Shown: positions 1-23,449 of the stretch, piece after piece
Layout of the letters: the number at the start of each line of letters is the position of its first letter
Position numbering within the stretch: position 1 is the stretch's first letter
DNA from: an uncultured bacterium
GTDB taxonomy: Bacteria > Actinomycetota > Geothermincolia > Geothermincolales > Geothermincolaceae
Assembly (NCBI GenBank): GCA_963814495.1
Contig: CAWFDJ010000027.1
Coordinates: 32,691-96,690, forward strand
Direction of reading: 5' to 3'
Length of the DNA stretch: 64,000 bases
Notes under the pieces: generated by a model
What the model saw: only the letters and a program-made list of their open reading frames with translations
Told to the model about the DNA's origin: nothing
Databases searched by the model: none
Translations under genes and position numbers: made by a program

Positions 1-2986
1 ACCAAGGTGGGCAACCCCACGGGAGAGATAACCGTCTCTTTCCGGACCAGCCTCACCGGCCCCGACGTCGGCTCCTACGTCATCACCCCGGACGAGATCG
101 TGGAGACCATCGACCAGATCACCAAGGAACTCTCGGCCTCCTACCACCTGGACCTGGGGGTCACCGGTTACCTGGTGTTCAGCACCGTCAACCTGAGTTC
201 CTCCGATTATTACTACATCTACCAGGGCAGCAACCCCTACGGCGAGGGGCAGCAGTACCTCTGGAACGGGTCATCCTGGACGGGCTCGACCACCTACGAC
301 TTCTACTTCAAGACCAACCCCAACCCCTTCCCCCGTGACGACTACGGCCACGGCACCTCGGTGAGCGGGGTGGCCGCCGCCGAGAGCGACAACGCCCGGG
401 GTATCTCCGGGGTGACGCACGGCGCCAAGATCATGCCCCTGAAGGTCCTGAGCGCGGCCGGCTACGAGGCCGGGGCGTTCGACATCGCCGAGCTGGTCGA
501 GGGCATCTATTACGCGGCCGACAACGGGGCCAGGGTGGCCAGCATGAGCCTGGGGAGCCCCTTCTACTCCGAAGCGGAGCAGGACGCCGTCAACTACGCC
601 CACGCGCTGGGCATGGTGATGTGCGCGGCCGTCGGCAACGACGGGGCCGACTACACCATCTACCCGGCATGCCTCGACAACGTGGTCGGGTGCGGGGCGA
701 CCACCAACACCGACACCTGGGCGTCCTTCTCCAACTACCACCAGTGGGTGGACGCCAGCGCGCCGGGCAGGAACATCTACGTGACCACGTACGGGGGCTC
801 GGGCGGATACGCCTTCGGCTCGGGTACGTCCTACGCCACGCCCCACGTGGCCGGGCTGGCCTGCCTGGTCTTCTCCCTGCGGCCCGGCTACACGGCGGAA
901 CAGTGCGAACAGGCCATCTTCGACAATGCCGTAGACCTGGGCGACCCCGGCAGGGACGACTACTTCGGTTACGGCCGTATCGACGCCTACCAGACCCTGT
1001 TGAGCGTGAGCCACGACGGGACGCCCTTCACCATCACGGCGAGCGCGGGGGCAGGCGGGTCCATCTCGCCGGACGGGGATGTGACCGTGACCGCCGCTTC
1101 CGACCAGTCTTACGCCATAACCCCGGATGCCGGGTACCACGTGGCCGACGTGCTGGTGGACGGGGCTAGCGTGGGCCCCGTAAGGGAATACCAGTTCACC
1201 AACGTGCAGAAGGACCACGCCATCGAGGCCTCCTTCACCATCGACACCTTTGACATCACCGCGACGCGCCGGGACGGGCGGGAGCGTCTCGCCCGATGGG
1301 CGTGACCGTGAGTCGAGTACGGGGGTTTCGACCAGAGCTACGCCATCACCCCGGACACGGGCTGGCACGTGGCGGACGTCCTGGTGGACGGGGCCAGCGT
1401 GGGGGCGGTGACCTCCTACGACTTCACCGACGTGGACGGCTGACCACGCCATCGAGGCCTCCTTCGCCATCGACACCTTTGACATCACCGCGAGCGCCGG
1501 GACGGGCGGGAGCGTCTCGCCCGAGGGCGTGACCGTGGTCGAGTACGGGGGTTTGCAGTCCTACGCCATCACCCCGGACACGGGGTGGCACGTGGCGGAC
1601 GTCCTGGTGGACGGGGCCAGCGTGGGGGCGGTGACCTCCTACGACTTCACCGATGTGGCCGCCGACCACGCCATCGAGGCCTCCTTCGCCATCTCCTTCT
1701 ATTTCGCCGAGGGTTACACCGGGGAAGGCTTCCAGGAGTACCTGTGCCTGGGCCAGCAGGACGGCGAGCCCCTGCCGGTGCGAGTCACCTACCTCTTCGC
1801 GGGCGACGCGCCGGTGGAGAAGGTCTACGACGTCCCCGCCCGTTCCCGCCTCACGATAGACGTCAACTCCGAAGTGGGGGCCGGCCGGGAGGTCTCCATC
1901 AGGTGCGAGGCGAACCGCTCCTTCGTAGCCGAGCGCCCCATGTACTTCGATTTCAAGGACGGCTGGACCGGCGGCCACGATTCGGTGGGCGCCAACCTGC
2001 CCTCGAACACCTGGTACTTCGCCGAAGGGTACACCGGCCCCGGTTTCGAGGAGTGGGTCTGCGTGCTCAACGACGGGGAAATCCCGGCTGACCTGACATT
2101 CCGTTTCCAGACCCAGGAGGCGGGGGAGCTGGCGAAGGAAGGCCTGGCCGTCCCCGCCCACTCACGCCGCAGCTTCAACGTCAACGAGATGCTGGGCGGC
2201 GAATACCAGAACTCGCTGAAGATCGAGTCGACCCTGCCGGTGGTGGCCGAGCGCCCCATGTACTTCGAGTACCAGGGCATGGAGTCCCGGGGCTGGACCG
2301 GCGGGCACTGCGTCATGGGCGCCCCTTCCCTCTCCTGTGATTACTATTTCGCCGAGGGCACCACCCGCGCCGGTTTCGAGGAGTGGCTGACCATCCAGAA
2401 CCCCGACAGCCAGCCCATCTCAGTGAGCGCAACCTATCTCATGGGGGACGGCGGCGTGGTGGAAAAGGAGTACGTCGTAGGCGCTGGCAGGCGCCACACC
2501 GTGTTCGTCCCCGATGAGACGGGTATGGAACAGGACGTCTCTGTCCACCTCTCGTCCACCGCCGGCTTCCTGGCCGAGCGCCCCATGTACTTCGAGTACC
2601 AGGGCATGGAGTCCTGGGGCTGGACCGGCGGCCACTGCGTCATCGGAGCCACCGGCAGCGCCGGCGGCTGGTTCTTCGCCGAGGGATACACCGGCGCCGG
2701 CTTCGAGGAGTGGCTGTGCATCCAGAACCCCGGCGACTTTGAGGCTGTGGTGACCGTCACCTACTACCCGGAAGGGGGCGCTGCTCCCTTCGACACCTCG
2801 CACCGGGTGGCGGCACACTCCCGCTACACCGTCATGGTCAACGGAGACGCCGGGCCGGACCGGGCCATGTCCGCCATGGTCACGTCCGACCATCCCGTCA
2901 TCGTCGAACGCCCCATGTACTTCGTCTACAACGGCGAGTGGGACGGCGGCCACGACGTGATGGGCCGGCCGTGCGCAAGCCCCTGA
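1..2986 (+). CDS. Secreted S8 (subtilisin-family) protease with InlB-B-like repeats and a C-terminal DUF5719-like repeat module; 5' partial, broken by indels at ~1260-1445
   Basis: DDYGHGTSVSG (His), AVGND and GSGTSYATPHVAG (Ser) motifs. TITASAG.GGSISP..YAITPD.GYHVADVLVDG repeats. ORF 1529..2986 carries four FAEG.T/AERPMYF units. Confidence 0.85.
1240..1690 (+). repeat. Tandem near-identical repeat encoding InlB-B-like domains (229 bp + 222 bp)
   Basis: atcgacacctttgacatcaccgcga...cacgccatcgaggcctccttcgcc occurs twice. The first copy has 7 extra bases, which explains the frame change between ORFs 7..1305 and 1529..2986. Confidence 0.9.
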
Positions 2987-3020
2987 TCATCTGAGCGGCC
3001 GGCCCTGGCTGGCGGCAGGT

Positions 3021-4372
3021 CTACTTGCGGAGGTCGTCGGAGTAGAGCCGGGCGTGGCCGGGGCCGGCGGCCTGGGCGGCCTCCAGCGCCAGCACCGACC
3101 GCTGCAGCAGGGCGTTCTCGTTGTCCGCGTTGGCGGGGAAGGAGGAGACGCCGATGCACGCGGTGAGCTGCTCCACCTCCTTCTTGTCCTGGGAGGGGAA
3201 GGGGTACTCCGCGATGGTCTCGCAGAGCCGCTCCGCCAGGCGCATGGCCCCCAGGCGGCGCGTCTCCGGCAGCAGGACGGCGAAGCGGTTGTCCCCGTAG
3301 CGGGCGGGCACGTCCACCTCCCGCGTGCTCTTGATGATGATGTTCCCGATGTCGGAGAGGATGAAGTCGGCCATGATGCGGCCGTTGCGCCGGGCGTACT
3401 CCTCCAGGTCGTCCATCTCCAGGACCAGCAGGCAGACGTTGAGGCTGTAACGGCGGGCCCGGTTGACCTCGTCCACCAGGCGGGAGTGGAAGAAGTGCTG
3501 GTTGTAGAGGCCGCTGGCGCTGTCCCGCATGGTGTTGGTCTCCAGCTCGCTGTAGAGGTTGGATATCTGCAGGGCCAGCGAGGCGTGGGCGGCGGCCACC
3601 GTCAGCATCCCCAGGTGATAGGCCTGGAAATCCTCGTCCCGGCTTCGCCCCGCCAGCAGGACCCCGGCCGAACGCCCGCTCACCCGCAGGGGCACCGCCA
3701 TCAGGCAGACGGCCCCGGCCTCGCGCAGGAACTCGTCGGAGGCCAGGTCCTCGGGGGCCAGCCCCATCAGCAGGCTCCTGTCCATCTCCATCACCACTTC
3801 GATGACGGAGCCCTCGATGCGGATGGTCTTGTTCAGGAAGCGGGAGGCCTGGTCGCCCAGGGCCACCGCCAGGTCCAGTTCCCCCGCCAGCTCCCCGGGC
3901 AGCAGGACGAACCCGAGGTCGGCCTCGCAGAGGGTCATGGCATGCTCGAGTATCTCGTTCAGCTTGGGCAGGGGGTCGGTGTAGGCGTCGACCACCTGCA
4001 CGCTCTCGCAGAAGGTGCCGATGTCCTGAGCACCCCGGGCAGTTGCTCGACGCCGACTCCCCGCGCCGCGGCCAGGCAGGTGAAGAGATCGCCCTCCGGG
4101 CTGCCCTCGCCGATGTCGATGATCTTGCCGCGGTAGTCGGTGCCGGCGCGCGCGCCCACCCCGCGGGTGCTGAAGAGGATGTCCGGCTCCCGGTCCTTGA
4201 GCAGGGCGGCGACGTCCGGGAATACCATGGGGAACTCATAACCGTCGGGCCACTCCTCCGGCACCGGGCCTGTCCAGCCGATGACCTCGACGCCGTCCCC
4301 GATGTCCTTGAAGAAGCAGTAGACCTTCAATGCCGTGTCGTTGTTTCCGTCGATAGCGACGAGTACGGGCAA
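3021..4372 (-). CDS. GAF + degenerate GGDEF domain protein (frameshift ~3990-4030)
   Basis: RDSASGLYNQHFF, VNRARRY, LLVLEMDDL and REVDVPARYGDNRFAVLLPET. GAF-like MAVPLRVSGRSAGVL. N-terminal part is in ORF 3959..4372. Confidence 0.8.
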
Positions 4373-4532
4373 GTCCTTCGCACCTCCTGATTTTTACTCC
4401 GTAAAGATTATTGTAAACGTAAAGGAAACACTTGAACAGCCATCTGAACCTTTGGTAAACTTGTCGAATAAGGGTTCAAGGGCTGGGCCAGCAAAAATCC
4501 GTGCAGTGAATCGCCGGCGACAGGGGGGTGCG

Positions 4533-7409
4533 ATGAAGAGCAGGGTTTTTTCCATTGTCTCCGTTCTATTGGCTTGTCTGCTGCTGTGTTTTCCCTTGTG
4601 CTCCAACGTCCTGGCGTCCGGCACCGCGGGCGCGGCGGCGGTCAGCTCCGCGAAACTGCCCCAGGACATCTACACGGCCCGCACCTACGACGGGGTGGAC
4701 CTGAAGATGTGGCGGTTCCGCCCCACCACCGCGAGCGCCGTTGCGGGAGGGGGCCCAGCCCGTCATCCTCATGCCCGGGATGGCCTGCAACTTCGACTTC
4801 TTCGACACCCATACCCCGGACGGGGTGACCTACGACGAGCAGCTCCCGGCCGACCTGGCCGGCTGGGCCGAGGGGGACACCTACCTGTCGGACGCCGACC
4901 CCATGCGCTACTACAGCCTCGCCTACTACCTGTGGACATCCGGCTACGACGTGTGGATGGCCAACTACCGCGGCCAGGGCCGGGACGAGGTCCGCAGCGG
5001 CGGCGCGACCGGGTACGCCATCGACGAGCTGGGCATCTACGACATGCCGGCCATCATCAGCAAGGTGCGCGAGGTCACCGGGCAGAAGCCGGTGTGGATC
5101 GGGCACAGCATGGGCGGCGTCATGGCCAACATGTACCTGGAGGGCTGCCGGTTCGCGAACATGGACGACGCCGACTCGAGCGTCGTCTCCGACCCCGCGC
5201 TGGCGGCGGAGCGGAACGATGGTGATGGGCCGCAGGCCCTCAAGGCGTATATCCCGGTGGACGGTCCGTCCTATCCCTGCGGCGACATCCCCTGGCTCAT
5301 CGCGAAGTTGCTGTACGTGGCCCTGTACGTTCCCTGGAACCTGGACATCAGGCCCATCACCGCCAACCTGGGGGGGCTGGTCGCCTCGCCCGTCCTGGCC
5401 CTTGAAGAGATCTTCCGCCAGGTGTGGGCGGGCTTCGGCTACCCCGACCTGTTCCTGCCCCTCAACTTCCTGCCCTGTTTCGTCCCGGGCAACCTGGACG
5501 CCAACCTCGCGTCCTATTTCATCACCTACGGGGCGGACGGGTTCAGCTCGCGGGCGGTGGTCCAGTTCCTGGACGCGTGCGACAACGGAAAGATGCGGGA
5601 GGACTACCGCAACGGCACCTTCAACTGGTGGCGCCTGTTCCCGCCCGAGCCCGCCGCGGGCGACGGTTACTACTATTACTCGGACCACCTGGACGCGATC
5701 AGCCTGCCCACCTTCGTCCTCATCGACGCCACCCGGGACATCACCAACCCCGAGGACGTCAAGGCCGTCTACGACCTGAAGACCCGTAACGCGCACGACG
5801 ACTACTACGTCGTGCCCAACTCCGCCCACGCCGACATCGTCATGGGGTTCAGCGCGCCTTCCGACATGTTCCCCCGCATCGGCGCCTGGCTCAAGTCGCT
5901 GGAGGCCACCACCGTCACCCCCACCTCCGCGGCGCCCGGCGAGGTCGTGACCATCTCGGGTGCGAGCTTCGGGAGTTCCGGGTCGGTTGACTTCGGGGGG
6001 ACGCGGGCGGACGTGGCCTCCTGGAGCGATACCGAGATAACCGCGGTGGTACCCGCGGGCGCCTGCTACGGCAAGGTCAGCGTGACCAACCCCGGCGGCA
6101 CCGTCACCTCGGCCGAGGAGTTCATGCCGGCCGCCTCGGAGTTCTACTTCGCCGAGGGCTACACGGGTGAGGGCTCCTTCCAGGAGTACCTGTGCCTGGG
6201 CAACCTGGAGGCGCAGGGACGCCCACGCCCGGGTCACCTACATGCTCGGCTGACGGGTCCACCCTGGAGCAGGAGGTGACCGTGCCGGCCTCAGGGAGGG
6301 CCACCTTGGACGTCAACGCGGCGGTGGGACCGGACCGCGACGTCTCGGCCCTGGTCACCGCCGACCGCTCCATCGTGGCCGAGCGCCCCATGTACTTCGA
6401 CTACGGGGGGTGGACCGGCGGGTCCGACGTGGTGGGAGCCCCCGCCCCTGCAACGTCCTGGTACTTCGCCGAGGGCTACACGGGTGAGGGCTTCGACGAG
6501 TACGTCTGCGTCTTGAACCCGGGGGACACCCGGAGCGATCTCACCTTCCGCTTCCAGACCGAAGAAGCGGGAGAGGTGGTGCGCTCCGGTTACTCGGTGG
6601 GTGCGCACGCCCGCGCCACCTTCTTGGTCAACGACCTCTTAGGCCCCGGCTACCAGGCCTCGCTCGAGCTCACGGCGACCTCACCGGTGGTGGCCGAGCG
6701 CTCCATGTACTTTGACTACCAGGGCGCCTGGACCGGGGGGTCCTGCGTGATGGGGGCCACCTCGCTCGCGCAGGAATACTACTTCGCTGAAGGCACCACC
6801 CGGTCGGGCTTCCACGAGTGGCTGACCCTTGCCAACCCGGGAGCTTCCCCCATCACCGTGGCCGCCACCTACCAGCCGGGCTCGGGCCAGGGATCACCCG
6901 TCTACCGCACCTACACCGTCGGGGCGGGCAAGCGTTCCACCGTCTTTGTGGCCGACGAGGTGGGCACCGGCAGAGACGTCTCCGTCGAGCTCGCCGCCAA
7001 CGCGCCCTTCCTGGCCGAGCGCCCCATGTACTTCGACTACGGGGGCTTGACCGGCGGCCACTGCGTCATCGGGGCTTCCGCTCCGGCGGGCGAATGGTTC
7101 TTCGCAGAGGGCTGCACCGGGGCTGGCTTTTCCGAGTGGCTGTGCCTGCAGAACCCCGGGGCGGGCGACGCGATGGTGGAGCTGACCTACCTGACCCAGG
7201 AGGCCGGGGCCCTGCCGGCGCGCACGGTCACCGTCCCCGCCGGCTCCCGGGTGACCGTAAACGTGAACTCAGACGCCGGGGAGGGCTGGCAGCTGTCGGC
7301 CCGCCTTGAGGTGGTCTCGGGGCCCGCGGTGGTGGTGGAGCGCCCCATGGTCTTCAACTACGGCGGGGCCTGGAGCGGCGGCTCCTGCGTGGTGGGGTAC
7401 GCGCCTTGA
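4533..7409 (+). CDS. Secreted alpha/beta-hydrolase with an IPT/TIG domain and DUF5719-like repeat module (frameshifts ~4740 and ~6230)
   Basis: Signal peptide MKSRVFSIVSVLLACLLLC, nucleophile motif WIGHSMGG, VPNSAHAD, TIG-like PGEVVTISGASFG..SWSDTEI, then four FAEG/AERPMYF units. Confidence 0.8.
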
Positions 7410-7569
7410 AACATTCAAGGTTTGGGCCCGGGCGCCGAGGGAGGGGGAGCAGGAAGGCACGCGAGGCGATGGCAGGCGCCGAGGCGAAGCGCGCAGAGCG
7501 TGGCCCCAACCTTGAAGGGTACACACCCTGACCTGCGGTGCCTTCCAGGAGCCCAGGCTTGAATATAAA

Positions 7570-7637
7570 CGGGGAGAAAGGTGCGTCGTACAAACCTTCG
7601 ATTCCGATCGGGTTTGGTAGACGTACCTTTCTCCCCG
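7570..7637. terminator. Long inverted repeat between convergent genes; probable bidirectional terminator
   Basis: CGGGGAGAAAGGTGCGTC ... GACGTACCTTTCTCCCCG forms an 18-bp stem with one G-T pair, with further internal pairing. Confidence 0.6.
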
Positions 7638-7647
7638 AATTAAAGGA

Positions 7648-8949
7648 CTAGACCTTGGTCTCCTGGAAGGCTCCCGTCCAGATACCCATGGCCACGGCCA
7701 GCTCCTGGTGGTCCTGGGCGTACTGCTCCAGCGGGATGCCCTGCATGGTGGCGTCGATGGCCTGCCGGAAGCCCCTGGCGCCCGCCGCCGGCCCCATGGG
7801 GTGGGCGTGCACGCCGCCGCCCGAGCCGATCATGATGTCCGGCCCCAGGTCGGCCACGCACTGGGGCACCATCAGCGGGGTGATGCCGCCCGAGGGCATG
7901 GGCATGGTGGGCTTGAGGTCGTGCATGGGGTAGGTCATGGCGTCGGCGCACGGCAGGAAGCGGTCCTTGAGGAAGGGGGCCTTGCCGTAGGGGGCGGGGA
8001 AGACCACCACGTCCGCGCCGGCCAGGCGGGGCAGTTTGCCCAGCACCAGGTGGGAGGACATCCCCGAGTAGTGCGACTCGTAGAGGGCGCCGGCGCAGTC
8101 CATGTGGGCGAGGATGGGCACGTTGACCTGGTCGTCCTCGGCCAGCGCCTGCATGGCCGAAAGGCCCACCGCGATGTAGTTGACCATGATGGCGTTGGCC
8201 CCGGCGTCCACGGCGCGCCGGGCCGTCTCGAACATCTTGGGCAGGTTGTCGGAGACGTTCACCGTGTACAGGGTGCGCTCGCCCGTCTCCTCGTACACCC
8301 GCTTCTCCAGCGCCATGTACGCCTTGACCCGGTCCTCCACCCGGTTGAACTGCATGTCCGCGATGAGCTCGTCGTCCTTGACCACGTCGCACCCGCCGCG
8401 GGCCGCCTCGTAGAAGAGGTCGGCGCCGATCTGGCAGGGATAGCCGGTGCAGGGCTTGGTCATGTTGTTGAGCAGGGGGCGGCCCTCCACTCCCAGCGCC
8501 TTGTAGACGCCCTCGATGCCGAACTTCGGGCCGACGAAGCCGTCTGTGAAGACCTTGGGGAGGTAGATGTCCAGCAGCTTGATCTTCCCGCCCATGGAGA
8601 TGTTGCCCAGCACCGCGGTGAGCAGCATGGGTATCTGGTTCTCGATGTTGCGGAAGGGGAAGGCGATCTGGATGACGTAGCTGCGCTCGTCCACTTCCTT
8701 GGGCACCTCGAACTCGTACTGGGGCACCTCGTAGATGCCGATGACCTTGGCCACGTGCTTGGCCCGCACCTCGGGGGTCTCGCCCGGCACCGGGGTCCAG
8801 GTGCCGGTGGACTGCTCCACCGCCAGGAAGGGCCCGATGAAATAGGCCATCATGTCGCGGGGCATGGCCCCGTAGTAGGTGGCCACGATGTGGTCCCCGT
8901 AGTCGATGCCCTCGGGCAGGGCCCGCGGTTCCGCCGCGAAATTCTTCAT
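7648..8949 (-). CDS. RuBisCO-like protein (form IV RLP)
   Basis: EQSTGTW, NMTKPCTG, GCDVVKDDE, PSGG and GSGGGVHAHPMG motifs. AAGGAGG RBS precedes the ATG at 8949. Confidence 0.9.
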   Translation of the reverse strand: MKNFAAEPRALPEGIDYGDHIVATYYGAMPRDMMAYFIGPFLAVEQSTGTWTPVPGETPEVRAKHVAKVIGIYEVPQYEFEVPKEVDERSYVIQIAFPFRNIENQIPMLLTAVLGNISMGGKIKLLDIYLPKVFTDGFVGPKFGIEGVYKALGVEGRPLLNNMTKPCTGYPCQIGADLFYEAARGGCDVVKDDELIADMQFNRVEDRVKAYMALEKRVYEETGERTLYTVNVSDNLPKMFETARRAVDAGANAIMVNYIAVGLSAMQALAEDDQVNVPILAHMDCAGALYESHYSGMSSHLVLGKLPRLAGADVVVFPAPYGKAPFLKDRFLPCADAMTYPMHDLKPTMPMPSGGITPLMVPQCVADLGPDIMIGSGGGVHAHPMGPAAGARGFRQAIDATMQGIPLEQYAQDHQELAVAMGIWTGAFQETKV

Positions 8950-8978
8950 CTCACATACCTCCTTGGTCCTTCGGCCGT

Positions 8979-10514
8979 TCAAGCCGGCTCGTTCAACTTC
9001 CTATATACACCGGAGAGCTTCCGGTAGATCTTCTTGAAGGCGTCGAAGAGCTCGTCGTAGGTCTGCCGGTTGCCCCGGTCGGGCTCGTAGGTGCGGCGCA
9101 CCTTGACCACCTGCTTCAGCTCCTTGTAATCCTGGTAGATGTTGAGGGCCACCGCCACCGCCAGGGCGCAGCCCACCGCCCCGGCTTCCTGGGCGTCCTC
9201 CACCGCTTCGATGCGGTGGCCGGTGACGTCGGCGAAGATCTGCATCCAGATGTCCGAGCGCGCCCCGCCGCCGATGGTGCGCACCGTGGGACAGGGATAG
9301 CCCGCGCCGCCCACCGCCTCCAGCAGCCAGCGGCAGTTCATGGCCACCCCCTCGTAGACGGCGCGCAGCATGTCCTCGCGGGTGTGCTCCAGGCTGACGT
9401 TGAGGAAGGCGCCGCGCAGGGTGGTGTCGGTCACCGGCGAGCGCTCCCCGAACATCCACGGGGTGAAGATGAGCTTGCGCGACCCCGCCGGCACGTCCGC
9501 TATGGCCTTGTCGAGCACGGCGAAGATCTCCATGTCCTTGCCGGCCTGGTCCCATTCCTCCTTGCGGCCCAGTTGCTCGGCGAACCACTTGAGGCAGGCG
9601 CCGGCCGTCTCCGTCTCCCCGATCATCAGGAAGGAGTTGGGGTCGGCCGAGGCGATGGCGGCGATGCCGTACTTGCTCAAGCTCTTGGGCTTGGCCACGC
9701 TGATGCACAGCCATCCCGAGGTGCCGATGTAGATGTGGGCGTCCCCCTCGCCCAGGGCACCCGAGCCGGTGGCGGCGGCGGGCACGTCGCCCATGCCCCC
9801 GATGACCGGGAGCCCCGGGCGCAGGCCCATCCGCTTCGCCGCGTCGTCGTTGAGTACTCCCACCACTTCCACCGACTTCTTCACCGGCGGCAGCTTGTCC
9901 AGCGGGATGCGCAGCAGCTTCGAGAAGAGGGGCGACCAGTCGCGGGTCTTGTTGTCCAGCAGGCCGGTGGCGGCGGCGTTGCTCTGGTCGATGATGTAGT
10001 TGCCGGTGGAGCGGTAGACCAGGTAGCCGTTGACGTCCAGGATGACCTTGGCGCGCTGGTAGATCTGCGGCTCCTCCTCGCGCAGCCACATGTGCTTGCA
10101 GATGACGTCCTTGCCCGAGGGCACCGCCCCGGCCACCTTGGCCACGATGGTCTCCCCACCCATCCGCTTGACCAGGCGGCAGGCCTGCTCGTCGGCGCGC
10201 GAGTCGATCCAGATGATGGCCGGGCACAGGGGCAGGCCGGCGTCGTCCATGGGCAGCACCCCCAGCATCTGGGTGGCGTAGCCGATGCCCAGGACCTCGT
10301 CGGGGTCGGTGCCGGTCTCCTCCATGAGCTTGCGGGTGGACTCGGTCACCGCCTTCCACCAGTCCTCCGGGTCCTGCTCCGCCCAGGCCGGCCGGCAGTA
10401 GTCGGTACAGTAGGGCTCGAAGCGGTAGGAGATGATCTTCCCCTCCAGGTCGGTGAGGACGGCCTTGCTGCCCCCCGTCCCCACGTCGTGGCTGATGATG
10501 TACTTACCTCCCAT
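8979..10514 (-). CDS. FGGY-family carbohydrate kinase (xylulokinase-like)
   Basis: HDVGTGGSKA, EQDPEDWW, WIDSRA, GGMGD, IGTSGW, PWMFGERSP, RAVYEGVA and GGGARS motifs. Confidence 0.92.
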   Translation of the reverse strand: MGGKYIISHDVGTGGSKAVLTDLEGKIISYRFEPYCTDYCRPAWAEQDPEDWWKAVTESTRKLMEETGTDPDEVLGIGYATQMLGVLPMDDAGLPLCPAIIWIDSRADEQACRLVKRMGGETIVAKVAGAVPSGKDVICKHMWLREEEPQIYQRAKVILDVNGYLVYRSTGNYIIDQSNAAATGLLDNKTRDWSPLFSKLLRIPLDKLPPVKKSVEVVGVLNDDAAKRMGLRPGLPVIGGMGDVPAAATGSGALGEGDAHIYIGTSGWLCISVAKPKSLSKYGIAAIASADPNSFLMIGETETAGACLKWFAEQLGRKEEWDQAGKDMEIFAVLDKAIADVPAGSRKLIFTPWMFGERSPVTDTTLRGAFLNVSLEHTREDMLRAVYEGVAMNCRWLLEAVGGAGYPCPTVRTIGGGARSDIWMQIFADVTGHRIEAVEDAQEAGAVGCALAVAVALNIYQDYKELKQVVKVRRTYEPDRGNRQTYDELFDAFKKIYRKLSGVYRKLNEPA

Positions 10515-10517
10515 GCA

Positions 10518-11211: not shown

Positions 11212-11217
11212 CAGCTC

Positions 11218-13138: not shown

Positions 13139-13149
13139 GCGGGAACGGG

Positions 13150-14141: not shown

Positions 14142-14302
14142 AGCGCCTCACCCGTCAGTGCCGGAACGGTCCCCGCCTCTTTATTAGAATGTACACGAAA
14201 ACGGGGCTGTTTATAAGGGCGCCGGCCGCCCGGGTATTTCCCGCTTGGAATTTCGAGCGAGGGGTGGTAACATGGTTTCTCGTATGAACAGGAGGTAGCG
14301 AG

Positions 14303-14491
14303 ATGTCCAAGATTTGCGAGGTATGCGGAAAACAGCCGAGTTTCGGCTTTAACGTGAGCCATTCGCACCGGAAGACCAAGCGCCGCTGGAACCCCAACAT
14401 CCAGCGGGTACGCACCGTGGTGAACGGGACGCCGCGCCGCGTCAACGTCTGCACCAAGTGCATGAAGGCCGGCAAGGTAGAGCGCGCCTGA
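14303..14491 (+). CDS. rpmB: 50S ribosomal protein L28 (Zn-binding CxxC form)
   Basis: [37 protein letters not shown]...VCTKCMK. Confidence 0.97.
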
Positions 14492-14522
14492 AGCCTTCCG
14501 GCAACCGCAGAGAGTCTCGAGT

Positions 14523-14552
14523 GAGGCGGCTCCGGCCGCCTCCTTTCTTTTC
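14523..14552 (+). terminator. Intrinsic terminator after rpmB
   Basis: GAGGCGGC-TCCG-GCCGCCTC followed by CTTTCTTTT. Confidence 0.7.
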
Positions 14553-14687
14553 CCGGCCGCGCCGACGGGGCGGGCCCGGGCGCCGGACCGGCACCCCGGA
14601 GATTGGAAGATGCGCGTCGATGCTGTAAGATTTCCCTAGGTTGGAGACCCGTAACCCATTCCGTTTCCGTTGTCAGGGTGCTATCTT

Positions 14688-15796
14688 ATGGACTTTGTCG
14701 AGCGATACCAGGTGGTCGAGATGGTCGGCCGCGGCGCCATGGGTGAGGTGTGGCTGGCCGAGGACCGGAAGCTGAAGAGGAAGGTGGCCCTGAAATTCCT
14801 CACCCTCTCCCCCGCCCTCTCCCGGTCCGAGCAGGCCGAGGCGGTGGAGCGCTTCTACAGGGAGGCCCAGGCCGCCGCCCGCCTGGCCCAGCACAACATC
14901 GTGATAATCCACGACGTCGACGAGATCGACGGGCGCCACTTCATCTCCATGGAGTTCCTGGAGGGTGAGACCCTGGACGAGGTCATCGCCCGGGGGCCGC
15001 AGCCGGTCGAGCGGGCGGCGGACGTCACTGCCCAGGTGGCCGACGCCCTGGCCTACGCCCATTCCCAGGGGATAGTGCACCGGGACGTCAAGCCGGAGAA
15101 CATCTTCCTGCTCTCGAGCGGCACCATCAAGGTGACGGATTTCGGCATCGCCAGGGTGACGGGGTCCTCCACCATGACCCAGGCGGGCACGGTGATGGGC
15201 ACCCCCGGATACATGAGCCCCGAGCAGGTGCGGGGGGAGACGGCGGACCGGCGCTCCGACATCTTCTCAACGGGCGTGGTCCTCTACGAGCTGCTCTCCG
15301 GGGTCAAGGCCTTCGACGCCGACTCCCTCCACTCGGTGCTGTACAAGGTGGTCAACGAGCCGCCGGCCCCGCTCGCTTCCCTCCGCCCCGACCTGCCCGA
15401 ATGGATCGTGGGGGTGGTGGAGCGGGCGACGGACAAGGACCCCGGCTCCCGCTACCAGGATGCCTCGGAAATGGCCCGGGACCTGCGCTCGCATTCGCTC
15501 TCCGCCGCTCTCAGCGCGGCCGGCGCGAGCCCGGCTCCTTCCGCGCCCCCGGACGGCCCGGCACCCGGGCATGCCAGGGCCAAACCCCGCCGCGGCTTCT
15601 GTACGGGCTGCGGCAAGGCGCTCAAGGACGGCCTGAACTTCTGCACCAAATGCGGTAAGCCCGTCAAGAGCGCCGGGGAGGAAGAGCCCGCGAAGGCGGG
15701 AGGGCCGGCAAGCCGCCCAAGGTCTTCTGCACCGCCTGCGGCACGCCCCTGAAGCAGGACGGGGAGTTCTGTACCGCCTGCGGACGCAAGGCCTGA
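14688..15796 (+). CDS. Hanks-type Ser/Thr protein kinase with C-terminal double zinc ribbons (frameshift ~15720)
   Basis: GRGAMGEV, VALK, HRDVKPEN, DFG and GTPGYMSPEQ. FCTGCG..NFCTKCG, then after the shift FCTACG..EFCTACG to the TGA at 15796. Confidence 0.88.
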
Positions 15797-15932
15797 GCCG
15801 GGTTACCCGGCCCGATTGTCTATTCAGGGAATGTCGCACCTCGGGGATTATGTTAAGTTATGACTGCAAGTAAGGGGGTAAGGTCAGATGGAGAAGGCAT
15901 GTCCGTAAAGTTGGTGGCATATGGGTAAACAA

Positions 15933-16490
15933 ATGGCGGATTTATGCCCGAATTGCGGGAGGTCGACCCTGGTCATACTTTCTGCGGCCATTGTGGTACA
16001 CCTGTGTCATCAACAGCTGCGGAGGCTGTTGAGTATCCGATCGAGCGCCCTAAAGCTATCCTCCTGCCCAACCTCATGCAGCTCCTCCCCAGCCCTATCA
16101 ATATGGACCTCCCGAGCCCTATCAATATGGACCTCCACAATATGCACCTCCGTCCCCCACAACAGACCGTAGTTGTTCACAACAAAATCGTGAACAGGAG
16201 CAGCGGTGCGGGTTGTCTCATAGCATTGATTATCGGTTATTGCCATCGCACTAACTGCATGCTGGCTTATTAATGCGGTAGTTTCCGACATGGATGATAT
16301 CAACGACTATTCGCCCAATTCAGTCAAGCCCGACATATTGCGATCGATCGACTGTTCCGCGACGACATACATTGCAGAAACAGGGGAAGGCCCTAAGTCA
16401 ATATCAATAGAAGAATTTACCCCAGACCACCTATTCTCTTTATCATCCTTTTCAACGGAACCTCCGAGGGTGGTAGCAATGCCCTCTTAA
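15933..16490 (+). CDS. Zinc-ribbon / Pro-Gln-Tyr-rich / membrane protein, broken by several indels
   Basis: CPNCG..FCGHCGTPV, a 24-bp tandem repeat reading QYGPPEPYQYGPPQYAP in an alternative frame, and a GCLIALII TM segment. AT-richer than flanks. Confidence 0.5.
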
Positions 16491-16614
16491 ATAAGGGCTT
16501 CGTTCTCGAGTCAAAGCCGTTAAGGGGGTTCGCGGGATATGCAAACCCCTGCGCGCGATCTGCGTAATATCAGGCGGCGTCGGGAGGCCGTCAGGCGGAC
16601 CTCCCAACCGTTGG

Positions 16615-16900
16615 ATGAACCGGGTCTTCGGCAGCGCCTGGGAGCTTGACCCCCGCACCGGCCAGTATCATTACCACGCCTTCTTACGCTGCCAGCCCGA
16701 CCTCGACTGGCGCAACCACGAGGTGAGGGAAGCCATGTTCGAGACGGCCCGCTTCTGGCTGGACCGGGGGGTGGACGGCTTCCTCCTGGACCTGGTCAAC
16801 CACCTGGTGGAGGACGACCGTCTGCGTGACAACCCGTGTCGCAATCCCGCGGGGATTCCGGGTGTCCAGCAACTGGTCCCCTACGAGTGGCAGGAGCACG
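16615..16900 (+). pseudogene. Internal fragment of a GH13 alpha-glucosidase/amylase
   Basis: SAWELDPRTGQYHYHAF..QPDLDWRN.EVREAM....FWLDRGVDGF.LD. The N- and C-terminal domains are absent. Confidence 0.75.
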
Positions 16901-18256
16901 ATTTCTCTACGGGACCGGGCGCCCCGAGACCCACCAGGTCCTGCGGGAACTGCCTATCTCGCCATTTCAGTCGTTCTCTTCCTGCTGCTCCTCCCACTAA
17001 TCATAGAAAAGGGACGGAGGAGTACCCCGAGCGGGTGCTGGTGGGCGGAAGGCGGCCACCTTCGACATTCATACGCGAAGCCGCTCTTGACGTGGCCTAC
17101 TTCAGGACGGATGCGAGTGCCGGTTTATACGAGACACTCTGATCTGCTGGCCCATGGTCTTCAACTTGGGACTGTACTTGACCTGCTGCCCCGTCTCAGC
17201 GCAGGCGTGGCGGAGGGCGGTGGTGCACCGGTGGAAGCGGGCTGCTGCCCGAGCGACGCCTGCCTTTACTCCGCCTGGCCCTCTCGCAACCATGACCAGC
17301 CCCCACAAGGACATGCGATGCCGCCCGCCTGGTGCGTACCCTCAGACCCGCCAAGCTCAAGCTCCGGGCTACGCCGCCTCGCGCTTCGCGCGGTACCTGG
17401 CGTGCGCTTGTCCCAACTGCATGCCTCAACAGCTGCCGGAGCGCGCCTTTCCTCCAAGTGCGGACCGAGGAGATCGAATGCATACTGCCCGAAGCGCGCC
17501 GGTGTAGGCCATGGGGGGTGCTGTTTGCCGTCTTAACCAAGGGGGGTCGCATTTCGCCTAGGGCCACTATCCAGGAGGGGGATTATTGTGCCGCACTCGC
17601 TCACGCTGCGGTAAAGAATCCACGAGGCCGGGGCAGCGTTCAGCAATTCCGGCGTGCTCCCTGTGCTCAACTGCTCCAGCGGCCGGTGCCCACGGAGGGC
17701 GGCGCGGCCGAGCAGGAGCGCGATCCCCTAGAACCTCATCCTGCTCAACTGCATCAGCCGCGAGCTCATCCGCCTGCGCCGGCCTACGGCCGGCACTACC
17801 GCCTCGGTGAGCAGCATCCCGTACGAGCGGGTATGGCCACGGGTGCTGCCTGTGGTGGCAGGGATCTCGGATAGGTTTGTGGTGGCGACGCCGTGCTGGT
17901 CTTCTTCAGCGCCCGGTAAGCGCCGAGGTAGGCGGCTGCAGGACAACCTACGCACCATCGACTCGGGCGTCATGACCTACAGCGCGGCGACCGGAGGTTC
18001 CTACCCGCTACCTTCAAGGCATTGGTCCCCAATTATCTGAGGGAGGGCCTGTCGCCCGGCGGGAGGGCACTACACCCTCTCGAAAACAACTCCGCCAGGG
18101 CTGTCTGCCCAACGGGCACACGTACTAGAGTCGCGGACCCGACGCCCGTCATAACGTCGGGGAGAGACTGATATGTTAATATCTAAGCACCATAGTATCA
18201 AATCCAAGCGAGCAAAGCGCCAGGATAATAGATATTATCAGGTCAAAGTAGGTTTT

Positions 18257-18331
18257 GCCGGTGTAGCTCAACGGTAGAGCAATCGCCTTGTAAGCGATAG
18301 GTTGGAGGTTCGATTCCTCTCACCGGCTCCA
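18257..18331 (+). tRNA. tRNA-Thr(TGT)
   Basis: GCCGGTG/CACCGGC acceptor stem, anticodon arm ATCGC-CTTGTAA-GCGAT, GGTTCGATTCC T-arm, encoded CCA. Confidence 0.97.
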
Positions 18332-18334
18332 AAC

Positions 18335-18365
18335 AAAAGGGCGAGACGGACGTCTCGCCCTTTTT
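18335..18365. terminator. Bidirectional intrinsic terminator
   Basis: AAAAGGGCGAGAC-GGAC-GTCTCGCCCTTTTT between tRNA-Thr and the convergent radical SAM gene. Confidence 0.85.
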
Positions 18366-18377
18366 CAATACGCGCGC

Positions 18378-19604
18378 TATCAGGCGGTGGCCTGCTCTGT
18401 CCTTCCCCTTCTCGGCCAGCTCGCGCCAGACCGGGTCGATCAGCTCGATGGGATAGGGCAGTTCCACGCCCTCGGGGATGTTGTGGATGTACTTGCGCCG
18501 GAACTCCGGGTCCTGCATGCGGCAGGTCATGGTCTTGCGGTCGTACTCGGGGTGCAGCTTCATGCGGTTCCAGATGTCGGCCAGGGGCTCGTCCTTGACG
18601 TTCCCGAAGTGCAGCGGGTTGAAGTCGCAGGGGGTCACGTAGCCGTTGTGGGTCATGTGGATCTGCCACTTGACGCCGAAGCACCCCATGATGCTGGTGT
18701 TGTTGACGTGGGCCATGTAGCAGACCCGCGGGCCCTTGCCGTTCTTCCACTGCCCCTCGTGAATCTTGCAGATCTCGTCGCGCTCGTCATCGGTGAGGAT
18801 GAGGTCGTCGTTCTTGATCAGCTTGCCCGTGGGGACCAGGTCGAAGATGGTCAGCTCGTGGATGCCCAGCTCGTCGGCGAGGTCGAGGTACTTGTGGTGG
18901 TAGTCCTTGCGCAACTGGTCCCGGCCCATGTAGGTGGAGAGCCCCACGCACATGTCCATATCCACCGCCCGCCGGATGCCCTCGGTCACCGTATCGTAGA
19001 GGCCGGTCACGCCGCGCAGGACGTCGTGCTCCTCCGCGTAGGGGCTGTCCAGGCTGACGAACATGGTGTCGCAGCCCGCGTTGCGGAGCATCCTGAGGTT
19101 CTCCTCGGTGAGCAGGGACCCGTTGGTGAACAGGTCGGCCACGCAGCCGTTGTCCACGATGCGCTTGACGATGACCCCCAGGTCGGGGTGGAGCAGCGGC
19201 TCGCCCCCGGTGATGATGAGGTCGGTCATGCCCATGGCGGCGCACTGGTCCACCACCGAGCACCACTGCTCGGTGGTGAGGGTGTCGGTGGGGTTGCGGC
19301 GGTAGGCCGAGCAGTGGACGCAGCGGGCGTTGCACTGCGAGGTGATGGCCATGGTGATGGCGTGGGGCGCCCAGTCGCGCCCCAGCCCGCGGTTGATGAT
19401 GTTTTTGTAGAAGTTCTGGTAAGCCTGGGATTTCACCGGCGGCAGGTGGTAGGTGTACCTGTCGGAGCGGGCGAACTTGATGAAGGGGAAGTGCGGGCCG
19501 ATGTTCTTGAGGATCCACCCGCCGGCCACCATGAACATGGGGAAGGTGGGGGGGCCCAGGGTCTTGTAGAAATTCCTCTGCATTCTGCGTATTGCTGTAG
19601 CCAT
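18378..19604 (-). CDS. Radical SAM protein with a Twitch/SPASM-like C-terminus (true end probably ~18380)
   Basis: CNARCVHC, ITGGEPLL, FTNG, VSLDS, GC..WQIHMTHNGYVTPCDF..FGNV. The ORF-track extension through the tRNA is probably an indel artefact. Confidence 0.85.
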
Positions 19605-19723
19605 TGCTGCCTATGAGCTCCTTTCGCTACCTCGGTCCCGGACCGTATCTATATGCATACCTGTCCATGGTAACATAATATTTCGGTAAGGTGATTGATG
19701 CCCTTTAGCAACCCAGCCGGGAG

Positions 19724-20236
19724 TCATTCGAAGCGCAGCTCGTCCAGGAGCAGGCGTACCTCCTCGGGCACGCGCTCCTCCAGGCGCGGCGGGCGTTGCC
19801 GGTCCCGCAGGTGCCCCGATTCCTCCTCGATCTCGGACCGCGCGCGGCCTCGACTTCCCGCGCCAGCGCCTCCGCGCTCCACACCGCGGCCCCGTGAAAC
19901 CAGGCCACGTCGCGCTCGGCGCGGTCGCCGGTGGCCACGCTGACCTCGAACTTCCCCGCCAGGCGGCGGACCAGTTCCTCGATGAGGGCGTCGGCGGTCT
20001 GACCCTTGCCTGTGTACATGACCTTGAGGCCGCGGTCCTCCTCCACCTGCAGGGACGGGCGGCCGGCCGCGGCCGCGTCGAAGACCACCACCACCTGGAA
20101 GGCCCCCAGGTCCGCCAGGGGCGCCAGGGCGCGCGACCAGGGCGTCGCGCGCGTCCTCCAGTTTCCTCTCGAGTATGGCGGCCAGGTGAGGCCAGGCGTG
20201 GATGATGTTGTAGCCGTCCACCAGCAGGACCCTCAA
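19724..20236 (-). CDS. yacP: NYN-domain ribonuclease, YacP/Rae1 family (frameshifted)
   Basis: LLVDGYNIIHAW, VVVVFDA, GQTADALIE, VATGD. The TTG start overlaps the rlmB stop. Confidence 0.8.
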   Translation of the reverse strand: MRVLLVDGYNIIHAWPHLAAILERKLEDARDALVARPGAPGGPGGLPGGGGLRRGRGRPPVPAGGGGPRPQGHVHRQGSDRRRPHRGTGPPPGGEVRGQRGHRRPRRARRGLVSRGRGVERGGAGAGSRGRARSEIEEESGHLRDRQRPPRLEERVPEEVRLLLDELRFE

Positions 20237-20976
20237 ACCGCGCTCCTCTGCCGGATGGCCTCGAAGAGCATGACGGCGGTGGCCGCCCCGACGTTGAGGG
20301 AGGAGATCCTGCCGCGCATGGGGATGCGCACCAGCAGGTCGCAGTGCTCCTTGACCAGGCGGGAGATGCCGCGGTGCTCCGCCCCCATCACCAGGGCCAT
20401 CCTCCCGGAGAGGTCGGCTTCGTAGCAGGTCTGGGTGGCATATCCGTCCGTTCCCACCACCCAGAAGCCGGACTGCTTGAGCTCGCCGATGACCGCGGTG
20501 AGGTTGGGCACGGTGCATATCCTCACGTGCTCCACCGCGCCGCTGGCCACGTGGGCCACGGTGGGGGTGACGGGCGCGGCGCGGTGGCGGGGGAGGATGA
20601 TGGCGTAGACCCCGGCCGCCTCGGCGGAGCGGATGATGCCCCCCAGGTTCTGGGGGTCGGTCACCCCGTCCAGCAGCAGGAGCAGGGGCGGCTCGTCCTC
20701 CAGGACCATCTGGTCCTGCAGCTTGTGGAAACCGATGTAGCGGAAGGGTTCCAGGCGGAGGATGACCCCCTGGTTGTTCTCGGTCTTGGCCAGGCGGTCC
20801 AGTTCCTCGCGGGGCATGTTGACCACGGGCACCTTGCAGCGCCTGGCCAGCTTGACGATCTCCGCCAGGGCGCGGTCCTCCTTCAGGGACTTGGAGATGA
20901 GCAACTCGTACGCGGAGCGATTGCCCCTCAAGGCCTCCAGTACCGAGTTCTTGCCCTCTATCTGTTCGTATTTCAT
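20233..20976 (-). CDS. rlmB: 23S rRNA G2251 2'-O-methyltransferase
   Basis: IEGKNSVLEAL, NNQGV, DGVTDPQNLG, GAEHRG, IPMRGRISSLNV. Confidence 0.95.
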   Translation of the reverse strand: MKYEQIEGKNSVLEALRGNRSAYELLISKSLKEDRALAEIVKLARRCKVPVVNMPREELDRLAKTENNQGVILRLEPFRYIGFHKLQDQMVLEDEPPLLLLLDGVTDPQNLGGIIRSAEAAGVYAIILPRHRAAPVTPTVAHVASGAVEHVRICTVPNLTAVIGELKQSGFWVVGTDGYATQTCYEADLSGRMALVMGAEHRGISRLVKEHCDLLVRIPMRGRISSLNVGAATAVMLFEAIRQRSAV

Positions 20977-21098
20977 GGGGACAATGATAGCACACGGGCT
21001 AAGCGCCCATCGTGGACGACCCTGGAAGTTGCTAGAATAGGTTGCAGGATGTGCACATCAACCTGGATAAAGGAAAGGCTGGCGACGGGGGCAGCGAG

Positions 21099-23449
21099 AT
21101 GAAGAAGACGGCGATCGTGCTTTTCGGCATGGTGATGGCATTTTCGTGCCTGGCGGCCATCCCCGGCTCTACTGCGGCAAACGCTGCTCCTGCTGTTCCC
21201 GTTGCTACCGCCGTATCCGCACCCACATACGCCGGCTGGTGCGCGGGGAATACGCTGGACGGGTACGGGATGCTCCTGCACACCTCGGACGGCCAGAACT
21301 GGACGAGACAGGGGTCGGCGGGAAGCATCCCGGACGTGGACCTCACTGCCGCCGCCGCGCTGAACGCCGACAACTGCTGGGTGGTAGGCGGCAGCATCGA
21401 CGGTTACGGGACCATCCTGCGCACCTCCGACGGCGGCACTACCTGGGTCAGGCAGGGGTCGGCCGCCACCGTGCCCGACGCGGGCCTCTTGAAGATCAGC
21501 GCCGTGGACGCCGAAACCGCCTGGGCGGTGGGCAGCAGCGGGACCGTCGTCTTACACCGGGGACGGCGGCAGCACCTGGGCCTCCAGGCGCACGGACGCC
21601 ATCCCGCTGGTCGACCTCCAAGGGGTCTTCGCCATCGACGCCGACAACGTGTGGGTCACCGGCGGGCCCGACGGCGGCTACGGCACCATCTGCCGGACCA
21701 CGGACGGCGGCCTCTCCTGGGAGAGGAAGGGCAGCCTGGGGGTGCTTCCCATCTCCCAGATCCAGGACGTCAAAGCCGTTGACCAGGACAGCGCCTGGTT
21801 CGTGAACTCTTCCACCGGGGGGCATGCGCCGGAGATGTCGGTGCTGCACACACCGGACAACGGTGCCACCTGGGAAAGCTTTATGCTCGGTACCGCGGGA
21901 GACACCAACGGCGTGGCCGCGGTGGGCGACAGCATCGTCTGGACGGCGTGCGACTACAGCGGGATATTCCGTACCGACGACAACGGGGCGGACGGGTTCC
22001 CGCAGCAGACGGCCGCGCCGGGCTCCTTCTACCTGATGACCATCGACGCCGAGGACAGCGACACCGCCTGGTTGTGCGGGGGGATCCACGACGGCACCGG
22101 TCATCACGGGATCATCGAGCACACCTCGGACGGCGGCGGCACCTGGGCCAGCCAGATCGAGGTCGATATCGAGCTTACGGGCATCTCGGTGGTGAAGCTC
22201 GATGAGAACACCTTCACCTGGTACCTGCCGGAGGGCTCCACCGACGGCGGCATGGAGACCTGGATACTGGTGGAGAACCCCGACCCGGACCCCGTAACCG
22301 TCGACCTGGTCTTCGACACGGGCTCGGGCGAGGTGGCCCCGCCGGCCCTGGCGGGCCTCACCGTCCCGGCCGAGAGCCGCATCTCCTGCGACGCCACCTC
22401 GTTCATCACCACCTACGACCTTTCCACCAGGGTCGTCGCCCACGGAAGCCGGGTCAACTGCGAACGCGCCACCTACGGGAACGGCCGGGCCTGGGGCACC
22501 TCCTCCACCGGCTTCCCCGGGACAGCCGCTCAATGGTGCATGGCGGAGGGCGCGACCGACGGCGGCATGGAATCCTGGACACTGATCGAGAACCCCAATC
22601 CCGACCCGGTGGACGTGAACGTCAGGTTCCTCACCGGCGCGGGCGAGGTCGCGGGCCCCACCGGCACCCTGGCCCCGCATACCCGCTCGTCCTGCCGGGT
22701 GAACGACTGGGTGAACGCTTACGACGTGGCCACGGAAGTCACGGCGTCGGGCGGCGTGGTCTGCGAGCGCTCCACCTACGGAGGGGAGCAGGGAGATGGC
22801 TGGGCCTGGGGCACCTCCTCCGCCGGCACCCCCTTCGCCTCCGCCCAGTGGTACGTGCCCGGCATGGACACCGGAAACGGTGCCTGGATACTGGTCGCCA
22901 ACCCCAATGCCGCGGCGGCGGCGATAGACGTCGAATACTACGCGGGCCAGAGTGTCATCCAGGGACCCCAGGTGACCGTTCCCCTCCCGTTCCCGCGTCA
23001 CCCTCGATGTGAGTGGCTACGTACCCGGCGCCTGCGTGTCGGCCGCGATAACCTCGAGCGGGGCGGAGGTGGTCTGCGAGTGGGCCGAGTACGCGCCCGA
23101 CCTTTCCTGGGGCATCTCCTCCCTTGCCGTACCCGGGCTCCGACCCGACCTCTTCTTCACCGAGGGATCCACCGACGGTGGGATGCGGACCTCTGTCACT
23201 CTCTTCAACCCGGGAGACACCGCGGTCGCCGCCGACTTCGTCCTCTACACCGGCATGGGCAGAATGCTCCCGCCCGCCCTGCAGGATATAACCGTTCCCG
23301 CCCACGGGACCTTTACCGCGGACCTGAACGACTACGTGACTTCCTACGACGTCTCCACCCTGGTGATCGCCGAAGGAACGCTGGCCGGCAGGCGCGTGAC
23401 CTCGTACCCCGGTTCGGGATGGCGCACCGCCTCCGGGGCGGCTGAGTGA
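21099..23449 (+). CDS. Secreted YCF48/BNR-repeat protein with a divergent DUF5719-like module (frameshifts ~21550 and ~22980)
   Basis: Signal peptide, repeated TxDGGxxW Asp-boxes, then WYLPEGSTDGGMETWILVENP-type units. Confidence 0.78.

Follow-up and report, generated by a model that had tools for sequence, protein, structure and literature searches.

Domains with the ASRT fold were united into the ASRAH superfamily by De Souza, Iyer and Aravind, who distinguished three families, with tetrads and dyads among them (De Souza, Iyer and Aravind 2009; PMC2739507). ASRT and TM1070 are cytoplasmic, single-domain proteins of ~120 amino acids (aa) whose cleft contains a conserved His and Cys and whose operons link them to sugar metabolism; the cytoplasmic ASRT-like proteins form tetramers, and the ligand cleft is formed partly at the oligomer interface (PMC2739507). 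In the Chloroflexi Roseiflexus, Chloroflexus and Herpetosiphon, ASRAH domains are found as secreted tetrads that were described as always fused to a MurNAc-L-Ala amidase (PMC2739507). The classical DUF5719 protein is a single-copy actinobacterial surface lipoprotein in which an ASRAH dyad is accompanied by its own N- and C-terminal extensions, a lipobox and a conserved gene neighborhood (PMC2739507). Sugar binding has been predicted for ASRAH domains in general and peptidoglycan binding for the amidase family (PMC2739507). Here, we describe three genes of an uncultured bacterium of the actinobacterial class Candidatus (Ca.) Geothermincolia, each of which encodes a secreted protein ending in such a tetrad. 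They are carried by a stretch of 64,000 nucleotides (nt), C27:32691-96690, hereafter the window, of a metagenome-assembled genome of 2.84 Mb in 35 contigs with 66% GC. We propose, with a probability of roughly 0.55, that the tetrad is a non-covalent anchor to cell-wall glycan.

The three genes encode unrelated heads, namely a subtilase of the S8 family, an alpha/beta-hydrolase and a beta-propeller, and each of them terminates in four tandem units of ~105 aa (Table 1). An earlier reading of the window made from the letters alone, hereafter the sequence-only reading, had placed all three at these same positions and had described their shared C-terminal blocks correctly. A hidden Markov model (HMM) built from the window units recovers each unit with E-values between 1e-30 and 1e-44, ranging from 1e-41 to 1e-44 in the S8 tetrad and from 1e-30 to 1e-37 in units 1, 2 and 4 of the propeller gene, and the motif stands far above chance. 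The S8 gene starts at C27:31892, ~800 nt upstream of the window, with the signal peptide MKLAARIAIALVMMCALTGFA. The stop codon lies 1-3 codons past the last unit in the three genes and therefore leaves no space for an LPXTG, SLH or transmembrane tail; none of these was found at the three C-termini, as the sequence-only reading had also observed, and none of the three genes encodes a lipobox.

The unit is a domain of the ASRAH superfamily, possessing the ASRT fold and corresponding to Pfam DUF5719 (PF18986). The S8 and hydrolase tails score 57.5 and 61.6 bits against this family, whose gathering cut-off is 26.2, and nine intact proteins encoded by relatives score 46-71 bits, all above the cut-off. 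The ASRT family PF07100 (formerly DUF1362) is matched by the S8 tail with 27.7 bits for a cut-off of 25, and the relatives' proteins score 23-38 bits, seven of the nine reaching the cut-off. At the sequence level, a profile of ten window units compared with PDB sequences ranks 2II7 (ASRT) and 1NC7 (TM1070) at the top, with an E-value of only 0.02. An AlphaFold2 model of the S8 tetrad, built on an alignment of 35 tetrads, has a mean predicted local distance difference test score (pLDDT) of 95.8 and a predicted template modeling score (pTM) of 0.94. Compared with the PDB by Foldseek, this model matches 1NC7 (probability 1.00, template modeling score (TM-score) 0.84, root mean square deviation 2.1-2.5 Å) and 2II7 (probability 1.00). 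The divergent subtype carried by the propeller gene (type II) was modeled through the closest intact paralog of its tail, C5:7293-8528, whose model (pLDDT 92.5, pTM 0.91) likewise matches 1NC7 and 2II7. Taking both subtypes together, TM-scores with 1NC7 are 0.75-0.84 at root mean square deviations of ~2 Å and the ASRT entries 2II7, 2II8 and 2IIA have a probability of 1.00; unit by unit, the likeness to 1NC7 and 2II7 amounts to TM-scores of 0.65-0.84 at 15-30% identity. TM1070 and ASRT are the only confident matches, the others being low-probability multidomain proteins of the Ig/Fn3-like type. The eight-stranded beta-sandwich with ASRT/TM1070 topology, by which ASRAH domains are recognized, is present in the models of both subtypes. 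A new repeat family was also considered and was rejected by the Pfam and fold matches.

Within the block, the units abut without linkers and the four of them are predicted to form one compact, rigid body, the pTM being 0.94 and 0.91 for the two subtypes. Across 181 units from ~66 different proteins, conservation reaches 91-99% at each of the positions E5, G6, T8, N20, P21, R53, E81, R82 and Y85. Seven of these positions are polar (E5, T8, N20, R53, E81, R82 and Y85) and are kept whatever the partner of the tetrad.

The three genes of the window belong to a much larger set. With the unit HMM run on all six reading frames, the genome was found to hold ~67 tetrad loci and ~245 units, which occupy ~78 kb or ~2.7% of its DNA. 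Nearly all loci span ~1.25 kb, the length of four units. The block ends at most 11 codons from the stop at 47 of the 67 loci, and at several others it directly follows the signal peptide, with another domain downstream. Tetrad genes also occur in tandem arrays, five within ~17 kb (C29:35493-52853) and five within ~28 kb (C35:4173-31926), suggesting local duplication as an expansion route. Unit counts, which are to be read as lower bounds, are very high in all 41 sampled genomes of the class, and in the rest of the phylum units are found in just 14 of ~140 genomes, with one or two units each. The named organisms with related loci or proteins are uncultured Actinomycetota, Ca. Solincola sediminis and Ca. 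Geothermincolia. A search of 1.84 billion cluster representatives (50% identity) returned 8,398 matches at E <= 1e-3 and 5,735 at E <= 1e-10. When 256 public proteins were scanned again, 235 had four units and 9 had seven or eight; a few have about three, most of these being fragments that start at or near the block. The distance from the block to the C-terminus is at most 15 aa in 222 of the 256. Double tetrads, with 7-9 matched units, were observed in the public proteins P0001-P0008, P0013 and P0142, some of which, ~900 aa long, consist only of a signal peptide and eight units.

The partners of the tetrad were surveyed by Pfam searches on the fragments that join the predicted signal peptide to the tetrad or that continue in frame past it. 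NrpR, MoxR, SDR, UDP-glucose dehydrogenase and flavin reductase were excluded as cytoplasmic upstream neighbors of loci for which no signal peptide was found. The tetrad proteins carry Sec-type signal peptides, and the partners encountered comprise TIG (7), Peptidase_S8 (5), PD40 and other propellers, alpha/beta-hydrolases, GH39, GH123, Amidase_3, the YkuD L,D-transpeptidase, a beta-lactamase-type domain, a chagasin-type inhibitor and RCC1, LVIVD and Vgb-lyase-like domains. Downstream of N-terminal tetrads are found Peptidase_M23, Peptidase_M28, Amidase_3 and TIG with a propeller. Intact proteins from relatives and public data add a BNR-tetrad-Amidase_3 arrangement, SpoIID, CHAP, GH17 and a staphylococcal-type nuclease, as well as FG-GAP, beta-helix and Big domains. 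The block is carried by no fewer than six kinds of peptidoglycan-acting enzyme (Amidase_3, M23, NlpC/P60, YkuD, SpoIID and CHAP are the fusions named), Amidase_3 itself being present on only 2-3 of the ~66 paralogs of this genome. Its occurrence on ~65 proteins per genome shows the tetrad to be the dominant feature of the secretome in this class.

The repertoire of other wall-targeting modules is limited in these bacteria. LysM is absent from all 13 genomes of the lineage, whereas 10 of the 14 control genomes have it; for SLH and for PG_binding_1, each genome has a single protein. The sole SLH match of the genome belongs to a protein that combines a signal peptide, SLH, NlpC/P60 and the tetrad, in this order (C9:5290-7800, + strand), and 9 of 12 relatives likewise possess just one SLH match, whose open frame measures ~800-850 aa. 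The coexistence of SLH and tetrad in one protein suggests that they have different wall ligands. In all 13 genomes, the open frame holding the best Amidase_3 match is 739-780 aa long; that of the present genome also contains a tetrad. In this LysM-less lineage, the tetrad is the sole abundant candidate wall-targeting module.

Because the tetrad accompanies peptidoglycan-acting partners, LysM is missing and one set of residues is kept irrespective of the partner, we infer that the ligand of the tetrad resides in the wall. Each protein is exported through Sec as an enzyme or propeller head followed by a fixed block of four ASRT-fold beta-sandwich domains, which are predicted to pack as one rigid body and probably mimic the ASRT/TM1070 homotetramer. 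The mimicry is suggested by the number four, by the pTM values and by the cleft at the oligomer interface that was described for the superfamily (PMC2739507). The body would offer four equivalent predicted ligand sites, lined by the near-invariant E/T (FAEG.T), N-P, S-R and E-R..Y residues, and would most likely bind a glycan that belongs to the wall of the cell itself, be it the strands of peptidoglycan or a polymer linked to the wall. Such binding would retain exported proteins non-covalently at the surface of this monoderm, uncultured actinobacterial class, the tetrad standing in for LysM, SLH, CWB2 and similar modules of other Gram-positives, and new secreted proteins acquire or drop the block through domain shuffling. 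The envelope-anchoring role put forward by the sequence-only reading is therefore retained as the best reading of the context, given the signal peptides, the peptidoglycan-acting partners and the paucity of other wall modules. A more ambitious version of the proposal is also more tentative, and we place it slightly below an even chance. According to it, Ca. Geothermincolia and allied deep-branching Actinomycetota would use the tetrad as their general non-covalent wall anchor. The tetrad would reproduce the ASRT homotetramer in a single chain, with four sites for glycan, would recognize a wall polymer particular to these bacteria and would have taken the place of LysM-, SLH- and CWB2-type modules on practically all surface proteins, autolysins included.

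Several observations weigh against a wall anchor. Sortases, present at 2-5 per genome, constitute another anchoring route, and no sortase signal was found in the tetrad proteins. The invariant polar residues could serve inter-domain packing and not ligand binding. Stand-alone tetrads, which account for 45 of the 256 public proteins, are left unexplained by an anchor role alone, and the GH39-like, GH123 and GH17 partners would fit substrate targeting. In that case, the tetrad would bind environmental polysaccharides of plant, fungal or biofilm origin and concentrate the enzymes on food particles, as do the carbohydrate-binding modules (CBMs) of CAZy. GH39-like domains are present in three of the nine relatives' proteins, beta-helix and alpha/beta-hydrolase partners point the same way, and sugar binding is indeed predicted for the fold family (PMC2739507). 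However, CBMs directed to different substrates would be expected to diverge, whereas here the residues are near-invariant across ~66 proteins as diverse as proteases, a protease inhibitor, propellers and a nuclease; since the same seven polar residues recur everywhere, one common ligand fits better than many substrates. The peptidoglycan of the cell itself is the target of many partners (Amidase_3, M23, NlpC/P60, YkuD and SpoIID) and the usual wall-targeting modules are missing from the lineage, and we consider the targeting of environmental substrates unlikely.

The abundance of stand-alone tetrads, together with the existence of eight-unit double tetrads, would find an explanation if tetrads were to bind each other or a stand-alone tetrad scaffold, in a cohesin-dockerin-like or S-layer-like matrix devoid of glycan ligand. 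Self-assembly would also agree with the natural oligomerization of ASRT and TM1070 (PMC2739507) and with the rigidity of the predicted body. It is nevertheless rather improbable, as the conserved cleft and the contexts of the superfamily point to small-molecule or sugar ligands (PMC2739507) and the fusions with peptidoglycan hydrolases fit wall targeting better. The fixed number of units, four or eight, and the retention of seven polar residues at 91-99% speak against a purely passive role, in which the block would be a stable, protease-resistant stalk, a spacer or a folding aid with no specific ligand: spacers vary in copy number and tolerate substitution, and the block stands mostly at the extreme C-terminus and not between domains. 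Beta-sandwich repeats frequently act as spacers and Foldseek does return Ig/Fn3-like multidomain proteins, at low probability, but we hold a passive role to be very unlikely. The sequence-only reading had also envisaged an undescribed sorting system, which would recognize, process or export the block in the manner of LPXTG/sortase, PEP-CTERM/exosortase or the C-terminal domain (CTD) of the type IX secretion system (T9SS). The C-terminal position in most proteins and the lineage-wide co-expansion are what such a tag would predict. This suggestion did not stand, and we judge it highly improbable: the block is ~415 aa long, made of four folded domains, and has no hydrophobic or charged tail; it may also be N-terminal, following the signal peptide and preceding Amidase_3, M23 or M28; the proteins have ordinary Sec signal peptides; no export or processing gene adjoins the three genes in the window, where their neighbors are unrelated to export; and the same tetrad is carried by Chloroflexi amidases (PMC2739507).

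The history of the block can be followed to some extent by comparing its units. Those of the propeller gene are 21-32% identical to the other units, versus 39-64% among the S8 and hydrolase units, and fall into a separate clade with other genomic paralogs, which agrees with the divergent subtype recognized in the third gene by the sequence-only reading. Between the S8 and hydrolase proteins, units 2, 3 and 4 are 64, 64 and 55% identical to their same-numbered counterparts, versus ~36-50% for differently numbered units. A tree of 143 units separates the S8-like subfamily into four position-specific clades, and this block is inherited whole. In other paralogs, the four units of one protein group together in the tree; in C22:27172-28404 (- strand), the first three units are identical in protein sequence, owing either to a very recent internal duplication or homogenization or to a collapsed or duplicated repeat in the assembly. 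The number of units remains four both in the position-orthologous blocks and in those homogenized within a protein. This constancy, a count fixed at four or eight and pTM values above 0.9 argue that four units are a structural requirement.

Domain shuffling onto unrelated heads, with gain or loss of the block, is directly visible for the hydrolase because a same-genus ortholog lacks both the TIG domain and the tetrad. This protein (L101; G002:C13, open reading frame (ORF) 1261-2634) is 71% identical, 457 aa long and secreted, and ends right past the catalytic domain. L101 and the hydrolase of the window constitute a clean natural pair with and without the tetrad. The shuffling onto catalytic domains that the sequence-only reading had postulated is thereby confirmed, and the dozens of partner domains illustrate its extent.

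None of the three genes is continuous in the sequence as given, at least 10 frameshifts being present in total. The reading frame of the S8 gene shifts once before the window begins and three times at ~1263-1440, that of the hydrolase gene once at ~4725-4755 and three times at ~6205-6265, in unit 1, and that of the propeller gene once at ~21555 and once at ~22990, in unit 3. The three frame changes of the S8 gene within the window fall in the linker repeat that separates the protease domain from the tetrad, a DNA repeat with a period of 228 nt (Tandem Repeats Finder array 1105-1693, 2.6 copies, 88% matches) whose Flg_new_2 matches are weak here and stronger in the ortholog L067. A pseudogene interpretation was rejected, and the frame breaks are best read as assembly or consensus errors, because the essential rpoB gene (C32:91305-94458) is also split near its 3' end, several unrelated genes directly upstream of the window (C27:27000-32700) are split as well, no more than 19 of the ~66 tetrads of the genome can be read in one frame, as many as three shifts are clustered inside 60-180 nt and relatives possess the homologs as uninterrupted ORFs of 700-1400 aa. 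Calls of 'pseudogene' or 'broken gene' anywhere in this genome should be met with distrust. Its CheckM-type completeness is only 77%.

Between the three tetrad genes lie a diguanylate cyclase, a Ser/Thr kinase and a radical-SAM/SPASM protein (Table 1), for which no evident link to the tetrad genes was found. Further neighbors encode an MscS channel, YacP, a SpoU methylase and a nitroreductase. Short tandem repeats are located at 16084-16151 (period 24, 2.2 copies; period 15, 1.9 copies), in a stretch of lower GC without a strong ORF.

Table 1. Coordinates of the tetrad genes, their parts and intervening genes, numbered from the first nucleotide of the window.
Feature	Position	Strand	Details
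Secreted subtilase (S8) gene, 3' part	1-2986	+	Peptidase_S8, E 3.6e-41
InlB-B-repeat-like (Flg_new_2) linker repeats	1030-1696	+	Between S8 domain and tetrad
S8 tetrad	1697-2983	+	Units 1697-2011, 2012-2341, 2342-2668, 2669-2983; stop 2984-2986; single intact frame
GAF-GGDEF diguanylate cyclase	3024-4235	-	Between the three tetrad genes
Signal peptide, alpha/beta-hydrolase and TIG of the second gene	4533-6141	+	Start M 4533; signal peptide MKSRVFSIVSVLLACLLLCFPLCSNVLASG; Abhydrolase_1, Hydrolase_4 and TIG matches
Hydrolase tetrad	6142-7409	+	Units start at 6142, 6459, 6777, 7095; stop 7407-7409
Ser/Thr kinase with C-terminal zinc ribbon	14655-15749	+	Between the three tetrad genes
Radical-SAM/SPASM protein	18246-19610	-	Between the three tetrad genes
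Signal peptide and YCF48/BNR-type beta-propeller	21099-22218	+	Start M 21099; signal peptide MKKTAIVLFGMVMAFSCLAAIPGSTAANA; PSII_BNR, E 1.6e-7 and 1.4e-9
Propeller-gene tetrad, divergent (type II)	22219-23449	+	Units start at 22219, 22534, ~22867, 23150; stop 23447-23449

The sequence-only reading had presented the module as lineage-specific and DUF5719-like. The latter term was correct, and even an understatement in view of the Pfam scores. The module is not a new one, being the ASRAH 'tetrad' already reported (PMC2739507). Lineage specificity applies to the massive expansion in the class and not to the domain itself, which also occurs outside it. The domain, its fold, the tetrad arrangement and the prediction of sugar binding are thus already published. 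Some homologs bear the NCBI name 'DUF5719 family protein', and apart from PMC2739507 neither DUF5719 nor the tetrad was found in the searchable literature; among publications on Geothermincolia, none is concerned with the cell envelope by its title or abstract. Within that literature, we found no account of a tetrad deployed class-wide and at the scale of the proteome, on dozens of exported proteins that are unrelated to each other, nor of its strict restriction to four or eight units, of confident rigid-body models or of a link to almost all the wall hydrolases of a LysM-less lineage.

If the tetrad is a wall anchor, it would explain how these monoderm bacteria retain enzymes at their surface, it would provide a sequence handle for predicting the surface proteome from metagenomes and it would offer a compact, very confidently modeled lectin scaffold with four sites for display or for the engineering of glycan probes. 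Should it prove to be the general anchor of the class, modular anchoring to the wall would have been invented independently for a fourth or fifth time, and the finding would give a function to a superfamily that has been without one for 17 years, since 2009. These proteins also make it possible to test concretely whether sugars are bound by ASRT-like domains at the interface of an oligomer, as was predicted in 2009.

Sorting signals are made of a short motif, a hydrophobic helix and a basic tail, or of a CTD of 80-100 aa for whose cleavage the genome encodes a dedicated system. The tetrad differs from LPXTG/sortase, PEP-CTERM and T9SS CTD signals in having no such tail, in occurring also as an N-terminal block, and in the absence of a system gene nearby and of a sortase signal. 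The classical DUF5719 protein, which is linked to a glycosyltransferase, comes from the same phylum as the present host; unlike it, the tetrad proteins have four domains and many paralogs, and the window genes show neither a lipobox nor a conserved neighborhood. With ASRT (2II7) and TM1070 (1NC7), each unit shares its fold, and the size of their homotetramer equals the number of units linked here; in contrast to these proteins, the units are exported, fused in fours and endowed with different conserved residues.

The Chloroflexi amidase tetrads resemble the present ones in architecture. Like them, all three window genes encode secreted proteins with four tandem ASRAH domains, Amidase_3-tetrad proteins exist in this genome and in relatives, and both sugar or peptidoglycan binding and a tetramer-like assembly are predicted. 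The fusion to an amidase is, however, not obligate here, the window genes carrying instead an S8 protease, an alpha/beta-hydrolase with TIG and a BNR propeller. The block has spread to ~65 proteins per genome in an actinobacterial class, with dozens of partners, at either end of the protein or alone, in two subtypes and also in eight-unit versions. In the principle proposed, the tetrad resembles SLH, CWB2, LysM, choline-binding repeats and SH3b, since one repeated module is distributed on many unrelated exported proteins including autolysins, at ~67 loci with Amidase_3, M23, NlpC/P60, YkuD, S8 and GH partners. It is unrelated to them in fold and sequence, and its binding to the wall is a prediction. 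A comparable body, single, compact and pseudo-oligomeric, is built by three SLH or three CWB2 repeats.

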